This document shows, piece after piece, positions 6,990 to 47,514 of a stretch of 64,000 nt of DNA. This DNA comes from a virus. Below the pieces are notes generated by a model, which was given only the letters and a program-made list of their open reading frames with translations, had not been told where the DNA came from and searched no databases. Both the position numbers and the translations under genes were made by a program. Each line of letters opens with the position of its first letter. Position 1 is the stretch's first letter. Location of the stretch: positions 1 through 64,000 of the IMG/VR virus record IMGVR_UViG_3300025093_000013; one strand, 5' to 3'.

Positions 6990-9900
6990 ATGGGTTGGGA
7001 TATTAGGAGACCAAAGTTTGAAGGCGGTAGAACTCTTGCTGCAAGAGCAAGAGCATGGGCGTATGCAAAGAAAGCATTAATACCGCCCAGCAAGAATGAT
7101 TCGTTTCAAAGAGGAACTACATCATACTCTGACAAAGCAAGATACAACGGTACTAACAGGGTACAAGATGGTCTGCTTTGTGAGTGGTGGTTTGATGAAG
7201 GAAACGGAAACACTATCATTGATAGAACTCCTCTGACTAGAGAATCAGACCTTAACTGGATCGAAAACGCTGGTGCTGGTCTTCTAGGAGAGTGGTCACG
7301 AGATAGCTCGCAGAACGACAGGTATTACCTAAACCTTAGTGCAGGAGGGGCGACTAGAAACACAGGCTCCCAAGAGTTTACCGCTGGTCCTATAGCTGCT
7401 AACGAAGTTACAATGGAAGCGTGGTTCAAGCCCTCTGATCAGGATGGACTAGCCACCTCAGGACCAGGAAGAATTGCTACCATAGTTCCTGTTAACACAA
7501 CCTATACCGACCAGTGTGTAATGCTGGGACATGGAACTTGGACTGGAAACGCATCCAACCACAACGCTAGATCTTATGCTGCTAGAGTTAAAATGTACGA
7601 CACAGTTCATCAACTGTGGTCTGCGGATGACACAGCAGTTACAGACCAACTAGTTCATTTAGTGGTGACAGCTAAGTATAACACAGAACTAGATAGAGCC
7701 GAGGCAAGATTTTATGTTGACGGTGTTCTAGTAGACAGCAAAAATGTTTACGATGATAGCTCTGAGATTTTTGAAGACTGGGACCCTACTGCTAGAATAT
7801 CAACAGGAGCAGCAAGAAATGGTCAAAAGAAAGCCAAAGGTGGTTACTACCTAACAGCCATTTATCGTAGAGCACTTACCGCTGCTGAGGTATCACAAAA
7901 CTTTGAAGAAGGTGTTAGCCCTCAGAATGGTGGTTACAAAAAAGGAACCCGTGCTGTCCTAAACGATGGCGCTTCAACCCTCAAGGCTGGTAAGGCTGAT
8001 AAGTTTGAGGTATCTCTAAGCGGCGGTGTCCACCTTGATAAACTAACTGTAACTCTTACCGCATCTAGTGATAACGCTGGGTTTACATTAGGAGAGGACT
8101 TCACTCTTACACCTTCCACAGTAGACCTTCCAAAGGGAACATATGTAAAGAGTGTTAGTTTGTCTTGTGCCGCTGACACTTCTGCTGACCATACAGTTCA
8201 TGTATCTGTTAGCTCCATAAGCAACAACGGAGGCACTACCGTAGTTGAGAGTCCTTCTAACGATGCTAACGATAGTTTTGATACTGCTGTTACGGCAAAG
8301 GCTGTGAAGCCTGATCTTAAGTTCCAGTTCGATACTGATCCACATATCATTCCCTCTCCTACCGCTGCTGTAATAGATGGGTTTACAGTTGCTAAAACAA
8401 GAGATTATGATGAAAGTGTTGAGTTTACTGTAAGTGGAACAGCAACAACGGATAACACTGCTGATTATTACTTTTGGTCAGGAGGAGCCCCAGGCGTCTT
8501 CAGTGCCCCATTCCTTCCTATCTCTGGTACAAACTGTGGCTACAATAATGAGATCTGGCAACAGACTTATGGCTCTCCTGTAACCTTATCTGCTTGGGGT
8601 GGAGACGGTGGAGTCACTGATAAAATTACTACAAACGGTCTTCTTGTAGAGAACGCTATTGTTAACGGTGTTGTTAATGTAAAGGCTAACGATGTCACAT
8701 TTAGAAACTGTCTTATTCAAGGTGCTGATGCGGGCGACAGTCCTACTGAATACGCACTGTATGCACTTAATGCTACCTTCGACTTTACGGGAATAACAAT
8801 AGAAGATTGTAGTATTGAGAGATGTGATTCAGCTTCCCTGTTAATAGGAAACACTACTGTAAGAAGATGCGCTTTCTACGACGCAAGCTTTGATTTTATA
8901 AAATCACAATCTGGAGATGGAAAGGGTAATGTTACTGTAGAGTCGTGTCACTTTCAGCACATGGGTAACAAGGCAGAATTCCCATCCGCACACGCTGATG
9001 TTTGGCAACACAGAGGCCCTGGTAAAAATCTAATATGTAGATGGAACCATTTTGATCTTCCAGGCTACTTTGAAACTCCTCCAAATAGAGTTCACAGTGC
9101 CTCTATTATTTGGCAAAACAAAACAACCGACTCTGATGGCAACCCAATCGTAGGAATAGATCTAAGTGGTCTTGTAATTGATTCAAATTACTTCAATAAA
9201 GGATGCTCCAACGCTATTCTTCTTGCAGCAAAGTTTGGCCCTCTAAATAACTGTTTTGTTATAAATAACAAGTTCTATGGTGAAGCGGATGACTACAACA
9301 ATGATGAAGGTTATACGACAGGCGAAAACAACGATCCCTACATTGGAATGGGTTGGTGTCAATACCATCTCACCGCTCCAGCAAACGAAACCACAGACAA
9401 CGGAGGTCCTTGGATCCCAGAGTATACAGCATTTAATAACAGACACTACGACGGTAGTGAGGTGTATAAAACAGGAAGAGGTCCTGCCAACTCAAGTCCT
9501 ATGGACAATGTGCTTGCACCTCCTGACATTCCTTTCTACGAGAGTCCTGTAGGAGACAAGATTGATCTTTCTACTGGTATCACCTTGACAATGGGTCCTG
9601 AGGAGACTAGTAAAGGTGTGCTTATTTACTCTGAGGCTACTGATAACAATGGAACCTTCGTTGATGGTGATACAGTTAGTGGTGTTCTTGTAAGCGGTAG
9701 CGTTACAACTGGAACTGACGCAGGTGATTCGCTATCTGTTTGCTCAACTCTTAGCACCTTGACAATTGAGTTCAATGAAGCTGGTTTTGCTAGAAACGGT
9801 CTTGGTACAGGAACAAGAATTCCAACTAAGACAGGAAAGTTTGAGACTGTAATCTTTGATGATGAAGATGATGATGGAAATTTAGTGGCTAATGAAGTAG

Positions 9901-41727: not shown

Positions 41728-41966
41728 CGGTCATTCCTCCAATCTTGATCGTTGTATTGGTCTTCTTCTTCATCCTCGTCGCAAGGAGCGAATGCCTCAT
41801 CTTGGCACTCCTGGCACAATCCAGAGATAGTATACTCCTTAGCAGAGATATCATCTTTGAACCACCCAGCATGGCACCCACACACCACGCACTGCTGGTT
41901 AGCCATAGCGGTAGAGCGAGTGGGCTGGAGGGTGTGGAGGTAAGCTTCCATTTCGGGGCTCTTCAT
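41724..41966 (-). CDS. Small zinc-finger protein
   Basis: CVVCG..EYTISGLCQECQD; TTGAAA-N16-TACTAT-N6-ATG. Confidence 0.7.
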   Translation of the reverse strand: MKSPEMEAYLHTLQPTRSTAMANQQCVVCGCHAGWFKDDISAKEYTISGLCQECQDEAFAPCDEDEEEDQYNDQDWRNDR

Positions 41967-42106
41967 GCGTGTATAGTAGCACCTGGGGACTAGGTTTCAA
42001 GCGGAATCTAAGGAAAGTGGGCGTCCTAAGTCTAGGTCTGATAAGGGTTTACGGCGATCGGGGCCGCCGCCCGCCAAAATGGCAGGGCTAGTTTATTGAT
42101 ATAAAC

Positions 42107-42598
42107 TCAGGCGAGAGATTGAATAGCGGCCTTGTGCCAGTTGTGAATAGACTGGCCCGAGACATTGTAGTCCTCTGCGATAGAAGCGTAGGACTCGCCC
42201 TCGATAGTGTGACGCAGAACGATATCACGGTCACGGTCGGAAAGGGAATCGAGCATGGAGAGAGTCTCCTTGTCCTCCGTGTAGGAAGGGTGCCAAGCGT
42301 CGGAGTTATCGTCCTCTTTGATAGCGTCCAGGGACATCTGGATACCGTCACCCTTGAGCGCCTTCTTGGCACAGGCACGGTCAATCTCCATCATGCGCCA
42401 CTTGATGCGCTGAATCATGTAGGTCGAGAACTTCATGCCCGCATCGGGAAGGTACGCCTGCTCGCCCTTGTGCAGAGCCAGGAAAGCCTCGGACACCAGA
42501 TCGTCACGATCATAGTGAGCAGAGATGTGAGGCTTCTCCGCGTACAGGTTGGCGTACTTGTTGGCGGCGGGGATGAAGTCGCTGATGGTGTTGCTCAT
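42107..42598 (-). CDS. Sigma-70 family RNA polymerase sigma factor
   Basis: DDLVSEAFLAL, KFSTYMIQRIKW (region 2); LSDRDRDIV..ESYASIAEDYNVS (region 4). Start could be 42607. Confidence 0.85.
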   Translation of the reverse strand: MSNTISDFIPAANKYANLYAEKPHISAHYDRDDLVSEAFLALHKGEQAYLPDAGMKFSTYMIQRIKWRMMEIDRACAKKALKGDGIQMSLDAIKEDDNSDAWHPSYTEDKETLSMLDSLSDRDRDIVLRHTIEGESYASIAEDYNVSGQSIHNWHKAAIQSLA

Positions 42599-42756
42599 GT
42601 GACTCATGATAGTCTATTATCGACCACCCGTCAACCATTCCTTGAGAGAAATCTCTGTCCTAAGTGCCTGGGGGATAAGGACTTACGGCGGGGCGGGCTG
42701 CCCCCGCCAAAATGGCAGGCCCTAACCCCTTGCGGGGCCAGGACTTAGAGCCAGAC

Positions 42757-43545
42757 TCAGGCAGCCGCGAGGATACCCTCGGCAGCGTTCCACAGGTTGA
42801 GGTTGACGCGACTCAGCGCGTCGATGTTGGTGAGTTCCCGAGCCTGACGCTTCTGGCCCTCACCCTTGAAACCCCCACGGATGGTGTTCTCCTGCACACG
42901 GTTGAACACGGTCCACAGGTCGGAACCAATGTCCTCCTGCCTGCGAGGGTTGAGAAGCTCCCGAGAGTCGATCTCGGAGGCAGCACCCCAGCGAGCAACC
43001 TTGCCCGCGTGAGCCATCTGGAACTGCTCCTCATCGTCGAGGTGCAGGTTCGCCATGCTGTCGATGTTGTCCGCGATGTTGGGGACAAGGTTGGACATGG
43101 ACTGGATCGCATCGGACACGCTGTCCATGGACAGGTTCATGTGACGCTGCGTGAAGCTGCCCAGATCAAGGGACTGGATAACCAGACCATTCGAGCAGAC
43201 CAGAGCAAACAGGCCAGCGGCCAGCTTGAGCGAGGACGAGCCATCGCTGGAGTTAGTGACGAGGATCTCGGGGAAGATATCCTGCGAAGGGTTGCGAGGG
43301 TCCGCGATGCGAAGGCTAAGATCCTTGCGCTGGAACCCGAGGGTGTGCTTCTTGTTGTCCGCCGAACGCTTGTAGCTCTTGGGCTGGAGCGCACGGGTGA
43401 CGCCCCATCCAAGCGCGTCGAACTGCTCGACAATGCTGGAGGAAGGGACGAAGCTGTAACGATCCGACATGCGGTCGCAGGGCTTGGAGGCGAAGACGGA
43501 AGGAGCGAGCTTCGCGATCTCGCTGTTGTCCATGAAGGTAACCAT
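42757..43545 (-). CDS. DUF932/DUF945-family protein
   Basis: APSVFA..SDRYSFVP, NSSDGSSS, GLFALVCSNGL, DLWTVFNRVQEN; TTGATC-N16-TATTAT-N6-ATG. Confidence 0.8.
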   Translation of the reverse strand: MVTFMDNSEIAKLAPSVFASKPCDRMSDRYSFVPSSSIVEQFDALGWGVTRALQPKSYKRSADNKKHTLGFQRKDLSLRIADPRNPSQDIFPEILVTNSSDGSSSLKLAAGLFALVCSNGLVIQSLDLGSFTQRHMNLSMDSVSDAIQSMSNLVPNIADNIDSMANLHLDDEEQFQMAHAGKVARWGAASEIDSRELLNPRRQEDIGSDLWTVFNRVQENTIRGGFKGEGQKRQARELTNIDALSRVNLNLWNAAEGILAAA

Positions 43546-43679
43546 GCGTGTATAATAGCGTGCCACACTTAGAGATCAACAACAAAAGTGCGAAAGTTAG
43601 CGTCCTAAGTCGTTGGTACATAAGGACTTACGGCGGCGGGGGCTGCCGCCGAAATGGGGCATCCTATCGGAAAAGTTAG

Positions 43680-43710
43680 AAAAAAACCCCCGAGGATGCC
43701 TCCCCGAGGG
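43680..43710 (-). terminator. Intrinsic terminator (minus strand)
   Basis: Minus strand CCCTCGGGGA-GGCA-TCCTCGGGGG followed by a T run. Confidence 0.7.
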
Positions 43711-43780
43711 CTGCCCATTTCCCGATGGGCCACTCGCTTTCTTTCAACTCGGTCGGTTAGCTACCCTCCCGAGCGCATCG

Positions 43781-44014
43781 TCATGCAGATTTAGCCATCG
43801 GCGCGAGGCCGTAGATGCCAGTCCGATTCCAGACCTTGACCGCGTGGTCACGGGTGACTCCAGAGTTGAGGAACTCCCCAGTACGCTGGTTGACGATGGA
43901 AAAGGTGGTGATGCCAGCACGCTGAGTGCGAACCATGCAGTAGTTGCTGTTGCAGTAGCCAGCGACGGGAACGAAGGTCGTGCGACCGTTGGTGTAGCGA
44001 GAGTTGATCTTCAT
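43781..44014 (-). CDS. Hypothetical protein (MKINSRY...)
   Basis: TTGAAA-N17-TACTAT-N6-ATG. Confidence 0.65.
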   Translation of the reverse strand: MKINSRYTNGRTTFVPVAGYCNSNYCMVRTQRAGITTFSIVNQRTGEFLNSGVTRDHAVKVWNRTGIYGLAPMAKSA

Positions 44015-44045
44015 GCTTCTATAGTAGTTTCGAGTGTCGGAAGTT

Positions 44046-44207
44046 TCAAGCGTCCATTGCGTGCTTGTGCTGCTGAATGATATCCCACTCAAGCTCGATA
44101 GCGTCAGCACAGGACTCGCAGAGGAGCGAGTTGCCGAACGGAGAGCCGAGGGCATACTGGGGAAACTGATCCCCGCAAGCGTCACACGCGATGGTGATGT
44201 CTTCCAT
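44046..44207 (-). CDS. Small CxxC zinc-finger protein
   Basis: CDACG..LCESC; TTGCTT-N16-TACTAT-N6-ATG. Confidence 0.6.
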   Translation of the reverse strand: MEDITIACDACGDQFPQYALGSPFGNSLLCESCADAIELEWDIIQQHKHAMDA

Positions 44208-44328
44208 GTGTGTATAGTAGTCTATCGGGCCACGAAAGCAAGGGAGAATGTCGAGAAAGTGGGGCGCGTAAACCCTTGCAGCATAAGGACTTAGGGCGGG
44301 GGCGGCTGCCCCCTGCCAAAATGGCAGG

Positions 44329-44490
44329 TTAGGCTTCTTCTTCCTCACGATAAATATCATACATGATATCGAACGCAGTATCCAAGAGATAAAGGTTGAT
44401 ATCTTGTTCAGCCATAGTTTCTTCAAGAAGACTACTATCTTCGTAGTCAGCCATCCACGCAGTCAGTCTATCTTTGAGTTCTCTCTTCAT
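44329..44490 (-). CDS. Small acidic protein
   Basis: MKRELKDRL...; AGGTGAT SD-like sequence upstream. Confidence 0.55.
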   Translation of the reverse strand: MKRELKDRLTAWMADYEDSSLLEETMAEQDINLYLLDTAFDIMYDIYREEEEA

Positions 44491-44498
44491 GTTATCAC

Positions 44499-45149
44499 CT
44501 AGTGGGACAGGAACTTCACGGTCATAGTAGATTGCCAGCAGGCACCACAAGTACCACAACTCTCAGTCTTTCCAGTCTGCTCAGGACAAGTGAAAGACTT
44601 ACCCTCGAAAGACTCATCCGCAGCATAACGAATGCCCGACATACTTTCTTTGTTGCGAGACCAGCGAATAACACAACGCTCAGGGTAGGATGCATTCAGG
44701 CGTTGAATACGCTTGCCGATATCATCCTCACGGGCAGTATAACCCCAGATGAGAAGACCATCATACTTGCACAGCATCTCATCCCAGAAGGTTACATAGT
44801 CCGTTGAGAAGAAGTCTCCGAGGACATGGAGACGAATAGCAATCTTGCCATGCTTTGCAATCAGCGTGTCGATCTCATGCTCCAATCGACGAACAAATGC
44901 GCTATAGTCAGCGACAGAATAGCGAGCAGCGAAAGGCATATTGTTTCCATAGCAATCGTCCCAATGGTGGCAGGAACGCGGACAAGTATCGCGTTCGGTT
45001 AGAGTGAGAGAAAAGATAGGGGCACCTGCCCACGCAGTCTTTTTAATACGGCGACCAAGTTTTTTATTGTTGCCACCCGACTTGAGCATAAACACATGAT
45101 TGTCGGGAACGGGCTTGATCGACTTCTGGTAGCGAGTGCTTACTAGCAT
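44499..45149 (-). CDS. Phage Gp88-like Cys-rich protein
   Basis: N.KLG, TCP..C....CY, RLHVLGDF, CPEQ..CGTCGACW; TTGCAA-N16-TAGTAT-N6-ATG. Confidence 0.7.
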   Translation of the reverse strand: MLVSTRYQKSIKPVPDNHVFMLKSGGNNKKLGRRIKKTAWAGAPIFSLTLTERDTCPRSCHHWDDCYGNNMPFAARYSVADYSAFVRRLEHEIDTLIAKHGKIAIRLHVLGDFFSTDYVTFWDEMLCKYDGLLIWGYTAREDDIGKRIQRLNASYPERCVIRWSRNKESMSGIRYAADESFEGKSFTCPEQTGKTESCGTCGACWQSTMTVKFLSH

Positions 45150-45260
45150 TCCTGTATACTAGCACGGTCGGCCAAGATTGCAAGCAAAATCTAGCGTCCT
45201 AAGTCGTTGCTACATAAGGACTTAGGGCGGGGGCGGCGGCCCCCTGCCATTATGGCAGGA

Positions 45261-45473
45261 TCACCTCACAACCTCATCCATAACATAAATCTCCTCATCC
45301 CATCCATCATGCCAACAAGGATAGTCTGCGTGATTATCAACTTCCCAATCCTTATAGCTCTCTTCGATATAGGCTTTGGCATACCTGATAGCGTCCTGCT
45401 GGTCCTTGAACAGACCAAGGAGACGCTTGCCTTCGTGTTGCACTTCACGCCAAAGACAATAAACCTTATCCAT
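45261..45473 (-). CDS. Hypothetical protein
   Basis: MDKVYCLW..LLGLFKD..A..YA. Confidence 0.55.
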   Translation of the reverse strand: MDKVYCLWREVQHEGKRLLGLFKDQQDAIRYAKAYIEESYKDWEVDNHADYPCWHDGWDEEIYVMDEVVR

Positions 45474-45667
45474 CAAAACTCTCCAATGTAGTGGCCGACA
45501 CGCCAAATTAGATCTTGCACCATATCCTCCACAACATATGATGGCTCATCACCATAACTTAGTTTGCTACGGATCTGCTTGAGTTCTTCAAAGGTGCGAT
45601 TGAGCATATCAAGTGCTTCTTCAAGTTCTTCTTGATGAAGCATATCAAGCGACTTTTCATCCATCAT
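45473..45667 (-). CDS. Hypothetical acidic protein
   Basis: MMDEKSL... operon-style ORF. Confidence 0.5.
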   Translation of the reverse strand: MMDEKSLDMLHQEELEEALDMLNRTFEELKQIRSKLSYGDEPSYVVEDMVQDLIWRVGHYIGEF

Positions 45668-45797
45668 ATTTCCAACCTCTACAGGCGTTCTTGTTCTCTG
45701 CGCGTTTCTTACTGGTGATCTTATGGGCTCGACGGGCGAACTCCATATTGCGAAGGTGATTCCTACGCTTGGCAAGGTTCTTATCGTGCTGGTCCAT
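45657..45797 (-). CDS. Small basic protein (46 aa)
   Basis: MDQHDKNLAKRRNHLRNMEFARRAHKITSKKRAENKNACRGWKYDG. Confidence 0.5.
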   Translation of the reverse strand: MDQHDKNLAKRRNHLRNMEFARRAHKITSKKRAENKNACRGWKYDG

Positions 45798-45801
45798 GGT
45801 A

Positions 45802-46236
45802 TTAGATAGTAGACCGAAACTTGGCAGTGTAAAACTTTACATTCTTGATCCAGTGCTTATTGAGTCCAGTCGGGTCGTTATCAGCACCCACGGGACAATA
45901 ACGCTTGCCAAGGAAAGTAATAAAGTCTCCCTTGCTACCAGCCTTGACCCAGCGATCATAGTTCTTCTGGACAGTGGCAGCACACCACCCAGCTTGGTTA
46001 CGGTATCCAGGCTTGCAACGCTTGTGGATGATACCGTACTGGTACTTCTTGCCATTCTCTGCATACCTAATGGCTGCAACAATAGGGGCAAGTTTAGTGC
46101 GACACTCAGGACGGATATTCACATTGATAGCATCCTGATATAGAGCAGCGTTAGCCTTGCCGTCCTTAGTCTCGATTGCAGAGTACCCATCGGCAAGGAC
46201 AGGGGCACACAGGAGGAGTGCAAGGATAAACTTCAT
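45802..46236 (-). CDS. Secreted lysozyme/transglycosylase-like protein
   Basis: Signal peptide; AAIRYAENG (candidate catalytic Glu); YCP..WIKNV. Confidence 0.55.
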   Translation of the reverse strand: MKFILALLLCAPVLADGYSAIETKDGKANAALYQDAINVNIRPECRTKLAPIVAAIRYAENGKKYQYGIIHKRCKPGYRNQAGWCAATVQKNYDRWVKAGSKGDFITFLGKRYCPVGADNDPTGLNKHWIKNVKFYTAKFRSTI

Positions 46237-46328
46237 CGCCAAAGCTCCCAGTCGATGTAACCAGAGAAGAAGAGAGCTTCCTCGCCCTCTTGCTCGTTCA
46301 TCTCGTCTTCGTACTCTTCAAGGTCCAT
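46233..46328 (-). CDS. Small acidic peptide (31 aa)
   Basis: TTGCAC-N16-TACTAT-N6-ATG; MDLEEYEDEM... Confidence 0.5.
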   Translation of the reverse strand: MDLEEYEDEMNEQEGEEALFFSGYIDWELWR

Positions 46329-46500
46329 GTGTGTATAGTAGCACAGTCTGGCTATGGTGCAAGACTTTATGGGTAGAAAGTGTGGCGCGTAAACCCTTGC
46401 TATATAAGGACTTAGGGCAGCGGCGGCAGCCCCTGCCACAATGGCAGGGGTGAGCGGTTGTGGATCAATCTAGTTCACCACGCGCCCTCACCCCCTATAT

Positions 46501-46744: not shown

Positions 46745-46903
46745 TCAGAAGGAGTAGCCTCCGTCATCAGCAGGACCGTAGGCGCTCTCCCACCAGTCAG
46801 CGTCAGAGGCTTCGTAGTAATACTCGTCACACTCGATCTGCTCCTCCCACGAAGGGTCGAAGTTGTCGGGGAGGTCGGAGGTGTAGTCAGGGGTGCTTTC
46901 CAT
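46745..46903 (-). CDS. Small highly acidic protein (52 aa), first gene of the early array
   Basis: MESTPDYTSDLPDNFDPSWEEQIECDEYYYEASDADWWESAYGPADDGGYSF; TTGACG-N17-TACTAT-N6-ATG. Confidence 0.6.
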   Translation of the reverse strand: MESTPDYTSDLPDNFDPSWEEQIECDEYYYEASDADWWESAYGPADDGGYSF

Positions 46904-47024
46904 GCCCCTATAGTAGCCTGCACCCCTTCCCCCGTCAACCTAAAACCGTGCGGAAAAAGGCGCGTTTACGGGTCCCATACACGGGCTCCGCCCGCATATA
47001 TGGAACATCATGTCTTACATATCA

Positions 47025-47079
47025 AGGGACTCCTAAAAACTTAGGGACTCCTACAATTATAAAAAAACAGGGACTCCTA
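47025..47079. repeat. Three direct copies of AGGGACTCCTA
   Basis: Copies at 47025, 47043 and 47069, at the early/late divergence point. Confidence 0.85.
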
Positions 47080-47103: not shown

Positions 47104-47514
47104 ATGAATCAAATACACGAAGAGCAAATGATTAAAGCTGCGCTTGGTGCATTAGCTAGAAAGCCTGTTATAACCCGACAGCAAGAGAGTATTCTCGCCT
47201 CTATAGCCACAGGAGCAGCGACAGATGTAGCCAAAGCGGCAGGGTCATTCCTTGCTAATAAGGTTATTAAAAAACTAGCAAAGAGGAAGGGTAAGAAAAA
47301 ACAGGAAGTCCAAGAGCATCGACTCTACGAAGCAGGAATGATGAGGGCTGCGCTTGGTGCTTTAAAGAATGTTGCTAGAGACAAGTTCCAAAAGAGCTTT
47401 GAGAAGAAAGCCCCTAAGGGAGGACAGCCTTCAAAAAGTAATATTAAGGCTGGTGTTCAAAGTATTAAAAAACTAGGATCAAGTTTAAGTGGTCCAACGG
47501 ATCGTGTGATGTGA
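47104..47514 (+). CDS. Basic protein, putative internal head protein
   Basis: Lys-rich with duplicated (E)..M(I/M)(K/R)AALGAL; CTATATA motif upstream. Confidence 0.55.
   Translation: MNQIHEEQMIKAALGALARKPVITRQQESILASIATGAATDVAKAAGSFLANKVIKKLAKRKGKKKQEVQEHRLYEAGMMRAALGALKNVARDKFQKSFEKKAPKGGQPSKSNIKAGVQSIKKLGSSLSGPTDRVM

Follow-up and report, generated by a model that had tools for sequence, protein, structure and literature searches.

A promoter-early stem-loop–type array of shuffled early-gene cassettes with a promoter-phased palindrome in an uncultivated marine phage

Promoter-early stem-loops (PeSLs), described in the T4-like phages RB49/phi1, T4/PST, and KVP40/nt-1, are composite terminator/promoter motifs of hyperplastic regions that undergo motif–motif recombination at variable crossover points; their features also include a terminator stem-loop, a Shine-Dalgarno sequence, and mini-circles arising from exchange between neighboring elements (Arbiol 2010, PMC2839356; Comeau 2014, PMC4122927). 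Here, we analyzed the first 64 kb (64,000 nucleotides; the window) of the 112,473-bp virus record IMGVR_UViG_3300025093_000013, which is rated complete by CheckV. The early region of this phage carries six paralogous modules of ~125 bp, arranged as direct repeats on the minus strand (41964-46448). The array is real and belongs to the known PeSL type, with direct comparative evidence of cassette shuffling, and the phased double palindrome that the phage shares with others is new. An original prediction made from the sequence alone, which had proposed an activator-like site, a cassette recombination site, or both, was partly supported.

All six modules are built from the upstream stop codon, a short hairpin, a GC tract, a 12-5-12 palindrome, a gap, TTGNNN, 16-17 bp, TANNNT, 6-7 nt, and an ATG, in this order. 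A profile of the six modules, searched against the whole genome using nhmmer, recovered exactly those six (E 1e-27 to 1e-31) and no further full copy; six copies thus lie within 4.5 kb and none elsewhere in 112 kb, and the open reading frames (ORFs) between them encode 31-262 amino acids (aa), mostly without a family match. The hairpin (consensus CCTGCCA-N4-TGGCRGG) is intact in five of the modules and decayed in the sixth (module 4), and the pattern CCTGCCA-N2-5-GGCRGG was found at five places versus 0.01 expected. The palindrome is asymmetric and spans 37 bp including its flanks. A search for its relaxed core (TAA-N4-TTR-N5-YAA-N4-TTA, at most one mismatch) gave seven genome matches versus one in the reversed-sequence control, six of the seven being in the module region; the most degenerate copy (42025-42053) is two mismatches away from the relaxed core. 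All seven palindromes of the original prediction were present where it had placed them, six of them within full modules, and the two hairpins that it had described as lying 0-1 nt past a stop codon do start there, at 44328 and 45259. The order of parts that it gave for all six modules was correct in general, the departure being the module at 43.6 kb, where the hairpin is decayed and a canonical terminator comes before the module.

The array resembles PeSLs as a small, conserved non-coding composite in which a stem-loop lies immediately upstream of a sigma70-type early promoter, and as a set of repeats between small, variable ORFs, the ORFs between PeSLs being non-essential and situated in a hyperplastic region. 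As with PeSLs, relatives differ by deletion, replacement, or displacement of ORFs at the elements, and crossovers vary within the element; moreover, the window codes for a distant T4-type portal (top match 34%, Microcystis phage Mel-JY01). Conversely, the stem-loop part is compound here, consisting of the short hairpin, the GC tract, and the 37-bp asymmetric palindrome. What is conserved in the palindrome is its sequence and not its pairing; it is phased to the promoter and is common to phages with unrelated structural genes. In addition, these modules have no Shine-Dalgarno sequence, and the ATG is situated at the predicted +1.

Comparison with relatives revealed the shuffling. Blastn/tblastn maps showed five cassette orders in six contigs (G000, L043+L087, L292/L290, L335, L287, and L013/L330), with modules always at the boundaries. 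In the window, the order is cassette 1, GP88, zinc finger plus 77-aa ORF, DUF932, sigma, and 80-aa ORF; in the closest relative, L043+L087, whose cassettes are 80-93% identical to those of the window, it is cassette 1, zinc finger plus 77-aa ORF, sigma, DUF932, GP88, and 80-aa ORF. Modules at the boundaries were hybrids in which the 5' part went with the upstream gene and the promoter part with the downstream gene, and three-way alignments located one switch between parents within the GC tract, a second within the palindrome loop, and a third past the palindrome. Marine metagenome contigs from three studies contained more than 10 additional junctions ending in module cores, several of which were found in two runs. 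Among them were 42738>44500 (3 contigs, 2 runs), 44303>42696 (2 runs, 10 shared nt), 42708>43603, 44224>46388, 45226>42719, and 43632>42059. The ends of the metagenome junctions were scattered over ~60 bp, and collectively the junctions agreed with the assembled relatives. Junctions that go back, such as 44303>42696 with its two runs, would fit a circle, and just as well a tandem duplication or a rearranged variant.

The statement of the original prediction that the window holds no recombinase could be extended to the complete 112,473-bp genome, from which tyrosine (PF00589) and serine (PF00239) recombinases were absent and in which no integrase or resolvase was found. Since the crossover points vary and the genome has no such enzyme, we infer that the cassettes are shuffled by homologous recombination between direct repeats rather than by integron-like site-specific exchange. 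Integron cassette arrays consist of promoterless genes served by a common Pc promoter, with an integrase and a single crossover point in attC. The array is similar to these in its small genes of the same orientation, in the imperfect palindrome after each of them, and in an order that varies among relatives; in contrast, every cassette here has its own -35/-10 pair, there is no integrase, crossovers occur at three different places, and the palindrome halves form no attC-type folded strand. The earlier cassette model is borne out in that relatives differ in gene order with breakpoints in the modules, and an integron-like form of it looks unlikely given the cassettes' own promoters, the varied crossovers, and the lack of a recombinase. 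A 53-aa acidic ORF after GP88 (44329-44490, minus strand) was inverted and ~5 kb away in L043+L087 (~9580-9730) and is the only cassette gene with a changed orientation.

The palindrome belongs to a much larger family. An IMG/VR scan using a 15-mer from its conserved half yielded more than 120 loci, most of them multi-copy, and 1.22 Mb was analyzed. The relaxed core with a 5-bp spacer occurred at 334 sites, versus 0-3 when the spacer was 3, 4, 6, or 7 bp, and one in the control; with one mismatch allowed, the ~120 uncultivated-phage loci contained 658 cores versus 31 in the control. In 221 close pairs of cores (52-54 bp apart), the core-to-core distance was 53 bp in 200, 52 bp in 17, and 54 bp in 4. 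This 53-bp spacing of neighboring cores identifies the basic unit as a ~95-bp double palindrome around a GC-rich spacer, which is fixed in length and variable in sequence. The edges of the unit are sharp, with the information content falling to zero on either side. On sequence comparison, the palindrome of the window is a derived half of this widespread unit, the upstream palindrome being replaced by the short hairpin. Module 5 is the sole module keeping both palindromes, the second being upstream of the hairpin, and the short hairpin there separates this upstream palindrome from the remainder of the unit.

In each complete genome examined, the units are confined to a single block of small genes, 7-15 kb long; the blocks in complete distant phages (G006-G008; L378-L401) were located at 124-131 kb, at 156-161 plus 0.8-12 kb, and at 90-106 kb. 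In a record with direct terminal repeats, the unit block was found at both genome ends, as for a first-injected early region. The host-takeover module of SPO1 and phage morons likewise comprise many short early operons with their own strong host-type promoters and 3' structures. The resemblance lies in the block of short early operons and, in the complete relative with direct terminal repeats, in its position at the genome ends; to our knowledge, no single repeated module bounds the SPO1 operons, and repeat-mediated shuffling has not been described for them. ThyX, DnaB, a RecA-like protein, dCMP deaminase, primase, and a PD-(D/E)XK nuclease are common to this phage and three complete distant phages, and its portal had no match in five distant element-bearing phages. 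Neither the region, nor the module, nor the unit of the distant family had a DNA-level match among GenBank phages. We found no description of the motif in the literature: full-text searches with motif strings returned nothing relevant, and a broader search returned the PeSL papers only. The double-palindrome element is thus apparently a new and undescribed large family of phage control elements.

We then considered what the palindrome does. It might act as an RNA or single-stranded DNA hairpin, that is, as a terminator or processing site ending each cassette transcript, like classical PeSL stem-loops or the RNase III sites between T7 early genes. Consistent with such a role, the palindrome is always preceded by the end of one transcription unit and followed by the next promoter, and PeSL stem-loops are proven terminators. 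In distant phages, 18 of ~188 tRNA genes (last in the cluster, Tyr or Asp) have a unit 0-11 nt after them (L007:8470-8552, L018:7819-7901, L050:8072-8155, and others), and the same palindrome starts 1-2 nt past six different tRNA genes in a Thermoguttaceae metagenome-assembled genome (MAG). However, the two halves show no covariation. At position 10/16, pairing is seen in 21% of 310 unoriented sites versus 51% expected (z = -10.8), identical half-site cores were found at 1 of the 310 sites versus 32 expected, and mirror positions were complementary less often than independent sampling predicts, with no compensatory change. A palindrome whose halves are less complementary than by chance is not a covarying hairpin, and this pattern points to avoidance of perfect symmetry. 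When sites were oriented, one half was well conserved (CSTAAGTCCTTAT) and the other degenerate (CAA-N4-TTASG); of the 246 oriented sites, 159 had no pair at position 7/19, and all had A-C at position 10/16, which is how the orientation was defined. Furthermore, the palindrome displayed no strand-specific G-U bias and has no U-tract, its predicted folds were heterogeneous, and the folding z was about -2 on both strands. Module 4 also relies on a canonical terminator of its own, 40 nt upstream, and neither the rigid 5-bp spacer nor the 53-bp doublet spacing is expected of a terminator hairpin. We therefore regard a hairpin function as unlikely. Given the non-covarying halves, the missing G-U bias, the weak folds, and the fixed 5-bp and 53-bp spacings, we infer that the palindrome is a double-stranded DNA site for a putative dimeric factor, two dimers of which would occupy the same helix face on the full unit.

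The spacing between the palindrome and the promoter is consistent with such a site. From the 12-mer to TTGNNN, the gap is 25, 14, 25, 24, 24, and 24 bp in modules 1-6, confirming the earlier observation that gaps are either constant or one helical turn shorter (24-25 or 14 bp), with a 1-bp disagreement that comes from the choice of the -35 hexamer. Of 24 modules of this subfamily, 21 have gaps of 24-25 bp, two (orthologous GP88 promoters) of 14 bp, and one of 35 bp. The gap sequences are ~40% identical versus 68% for the palindromes, and the conserved half points away from the promoter in 24/24. For 169 non-redundant gaps of the wider family, peaks were seen at ~18-19, 28-30, 39-42, 48-51, and 59-62 bp; a period of 10.5-11 bp gave a Rayleigh p of ~1e-10, and periods of 7-8 bp gave no significance. 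If +1 is taken as the A of the ATG, the palindrome centers would be at ~-63, -74, and -84. Class I activator sites, for example those of CRP, lie at -61.5, -72.5, and -82.5. The palindrome shares with these sites a dyad that precedes the -35 box, at positions separated by one helical turn, and a spacer conserved in length and not in sequence. It differs from them in its long (~16 bp), unequal half-sites, in the promoters already being near consensus, and in the doublets that stand five turns apart in most element-bearing phages. Accordingly, what is sound in the earlier activator-like model is its geometry (a gap kept in length with ~40% sequence identity, and peaks 10.5-11 bp apart), and what speaks against it is the existence of five promoters of the same design without a palindrome and the near-consensus promoters themselves.

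The promoters have a characteristic design. The -10 box lies 6-7 nt before the ATG in all six modules, with a -35/-10 spacer of 16-17 bp, and the 6-7 nt between the -10 hexamer and the ATG leave no room for a leader in any of them, a Shine-Dalgarno sequence being absent. Transcription would therefore begin on the ATG, producing leaderless mRNA. Five further predicted promoters share the design and have no palindrome (ATGs: plus strand, 32670, 36823, and 37284; minus strand, 44014 and 46903). Since the ATG of these five is 6 nt past a TACTAT box, the entire early programme appears to be leaderless. Two starts in the original prediction needed correction: the putative leaderless start of the sigma gene is 42598, not 42607, and the ATG of the zinc-finger cassette is at 44207. 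Rare variants of the short hairpin (GGCGGG, CCTGTC) retain G-U pairs on the sense strand only, which fits a possible role in RNA at the 3' end of the upstream cassette. Contigs of the RNA run X21 partly cover several cassettes.

The double-palindrome unit might also be a selfish mobile repeat with no regulatory role, comparable to miniature inverted-repeat transposable elements or to repetitive extragenic palindromes (REP), its constant spacing having been inherited by copying. The sharp edges of the unit, outside of which the information content is zero, would suit this explanation, as would its presence in phages without a detectable shared portal and in small contigs binned with MAGs of many phyla, and the related palindrome that heads a repeated tRNA-adjacent element in a planctomycete. 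The bacterial interspersed mosaic elements (BIME), REP, and Correia elements are bacterial and dispersed genome-wide, and some of them bind IHF or gyrase or supply promoters. They too are short intergenic units located after genes, with two inverted imperfect palindromes around a linker. In contrast to these, the units described here are clustered in one phage early region, oriented, phased to promoters, and free of target duplications. Copies are confined to one 7-15-kb small-gene block per complete genome and not dispersed, the conserved half faces away from the promoter in all 24 subfamily modules, the lengths of spacers and gaps are conserved and their sequences are not, and the promoter is phased to the unit yet lies outside it. 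Target-site duplications or flanking direct repeats were absent at 197 units. A purely selfish origin is, in our estimate, quite improbable. That the palindrome is an attC- or dif-like site at which a dedicated recombinase moves promoter-plus-gene cassettes is most improbable: the cassettes are shuffled with breakpoints in modules, the palindrome has the form of an imperfect inverted repeat, stop codons adjoin two of the hairpins, and one hybrid module changes parent inside the palindrome loop, but the other hybrids switch in the GC tract or past the palindrome, metagenome junctions end at many positions over ~60 bp, the complete genome lacks tyrosine and serine recombinases, a central spacer of 5 bp is unsuited to serine recombinases, whose sites have a 2-bp stagger and even spacing, and to tyrosine recombinases, whose sites have 6-8 bp, and no role is given to promoter phasing.

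On balance, the modules are probably PeSL-type composite control elements that combine homologous cassette exchange with a phased factor-binding palindrome. Exchange would take place by homologous recombination in the conserved core through the RecA/UvsX-like and SbcC-like machinery of the phage, and cassettes may be excised and then re-enter, by analogy with PeSLs. The short hairpin would serve as a 3'-end or terminator element in the sense RNA, and the predicted dimeric factor, bound on one helix face near -63, -74, or -84, could modulate the adjacent early promoter either as an activator or as a repressor. Several observations weigh against this explanation. The promoters are near consensus and have five palindrome-less siblings, so the need for an activator is not obvious. 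The short hairpin has no U-tract and hence is not a canonical intrinsic terminator. Phasing in the wider family relies on a heuristic promoter call and has one dominant peak, so it lends moderate support, and the present subfamily is ~4-5 bp out of register with the main family. The metagenome junction contigs were matched at 80% likeness and some of their sides are short (20-30 nt), which makes single junctions weak evidence. No candidate binder was found, and the phages sharing the element have only genes for replication and nucleotide metabolism in common. Finally, the leaderless starts, termination at the hairpin, and the effect of the palindrome are all predicted from the DNA sequence.

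More tentatively, the ~95-bp unit may be the docking site of one conserved transcription factor, brought in with the virion or provided by the host, through which many unrelated aquatic phages control their first-expressed genes; because the double palindrome is shared between lineages, it might also serve as a common linker for cassette exchange between phages. No part of phage genomes changes faster or is less well understood than the early host-takeover genes, and this locus shows that, in natural marine populations, such genes are kept as self-contained units and reshuffled. It also extends the PeSL idea well past cultured T4-like phages. The double palindrome can be searched for directly, could locate early regions in unknown phages, and is usable as bait for the binding factor, which might in turn lead to the host. 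Should that factor be the host's own, many uncultivated phages would be tied through the element to one host regulatory system.

The genome carries, besides the portal gene, genes in the window for terminase, DnaB helicase, ribonucleotide reductase, and an SbcC-like nuclease; a RecA/UvsX-like recombinase, primase, PD-(D/E)XK nuclease, and ThyX are also present in the phage. A search for a phage-encoded binder found no DNA-binding families among the neighbors of the module region, and four tRNAs were the sole Rfam matches at gathering thresholds. Near-identical sequence was found in marine metagenomes (24 runs listed, from 14 studies), and pieces with zero or few differences were recovered from runs of three marine studies. 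The products of the cassettes are a sigma factor, a DUF932 protein, a GP88/DUF7227-like protein, and small ORFs without a family match. The DUF932 and sigma cassettes form an islet of higher G+C (57.7% at 42001-44000, compared with ~44% genome-wide), which suggests that they were acquired from a phage of higher G+C.

All modules lie on the minus strand and are described in the direction of transcription. Module 1 (46326-46448) consists of a hairpin (46432-46448), a GC tract (46417-46431), a palindrome (46388-46416), and a promoter with -35 TTGCAC (46357-46362), -10 TACTAT (46335-46340), and the ATG (46326-46328); its cargo, extending to 45261, is a 31-aa acidic ORF, a 144-aa signal-peptide protein, and ORFs of 46, 64, and 70 aa. 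Module 2 (45147-45259) has its hairpin (45243-45259) 1 nt past the stop codon, its palindrome at 45198-45226 with the 14-bp gap, the -35 box at 45178-45183, the -10 box at 45156-45161, and the ATG at 45147-45149, and drives the GP88/DUF7227-like Cys-rich protein of 216 aa (to 44499) and the 53-aa acidic ORF (44490-44329). In module 3 (44205-44328), the hairpin (44312-44328) follows the stop codon at 0 nt, and the palindrome (44267-44295), -35 box (44236-44241), -10 box (44214-44219), and ATG (44205-44207) precede a 53-aa Cys-rich (zinc-finger) ORF; after it come an internal palindrome-less promoter and the 77-aa ORF (ATG 44014, to 43781). The canonical intrinsic terminator, with a 10-bp GC stem and a T7 run, separates the 77-aa ORF from module 4 and immediately precedes the latter (43680-43710, minus strand).

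Module 4 (43543-43668), with the decayed hairpin, has a GC tract at 43633-43651, a palindrome at 43604-43632, the -35 box at 43574-43579, the -10 box at 43552-43557, and the ATG at 43543-43545, followed by the DUF932 protein (262 aa, to 42757). Module 5 (42596-42749) begins with the upstream palindrome (42721-42749), and its hairpin (42703-42719), second palindrome (42659-42687), -35 TTGACG (42629-42634), -10 box (42606-42611), and ATG (42596-42598) lead into the phage sigma factor, which contains regions 2 and 4 (to 42107). Module 6 (41964-42086) comprises a hairpin (42070-42086), the degenerate palindrome (42025-42053), the -35 box (41995-42000), the -10 box (41973-41978), and the ATG (41964-41966), with 80-aa and 84-aa ORFs as cargo (to 41473). 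The first promoter of the block (46901-46972, minus strand) has no full module; in it, a lone half-site, CCCGTAAACGCGCC (46959-46972), accompanies -35 TTGACG (46933-46938), -10 TACTAT (46910-46915), and the ATG (46901-46903) of a 52-aa acidic ORF, followed by an 88-aa ORF. Further upstream, three copies of AGGAGTCCCT (47069-47078, 47043-47052, and 47025-47034, minus strand) occupy the divergent control region between this early block (ATG 46903) and the plus-strand gene 47104-47514. These repeats are 83% conserved in the closest relative and look like the palindrome half-site plus one C.

Some minor features of the wider family were also noted. In distant phages, the commonest neighbor of the unit is a sigma70-region-2-like protein of 210 aa (23 loci, e.g., L008:1449-2078), followed by ERCC4-like (18 loci) and GP88/DUF7227-like (16 loci) proteins; this phage, too, has a small sigma gene inside its cassette array (42107-42598, minus strand). 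Sigma54-like motifs (TGGCAY-N5-TTGCW) occurred 92 times in 1.22 Mb versus 0 in the control, in distant phages (L006-L125, e.g., L023:7486-9640, L008:4017), and a palindrome follows 22 of 81 unique motifs at a distance of 8-15 nt. Such motifs may be promoters recognized by host sigma54 or by a phage sigma. A sigma54/enhancer scheme was discarded, as this genome has no such motif and five complete distant records encode no PF00158 activator. A scan of bacterial genomes was ambiguous for host inference, returning mis-binned phage-like contigs, single-genome repeat families, and Planctomycetota tRNA-adjacent elements. The bare 10-mer was not enriched in five bacterial genomes, in one of which it sits in the terminal repeats of an insertion sequence. 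In the Thermoguttaceae MAG (G003; L257, L258, L260-L263), which contained 29 relaxed cores versus 1 in the control, no fewer than six different tRNA genes have the palindrome TAAGTCCTTAT-N4-YAAGGAGTTACGAC starting 1-2 nt past their 3' end, and the same tRNA-adjacent palindrome was found at a Rhodopirellula MAG locus (L255). It heads a conserved non-coding element of ~100 nt, and tRNA-adjacent copies resembling these were present in ~12 other Planctomycetota genomes.

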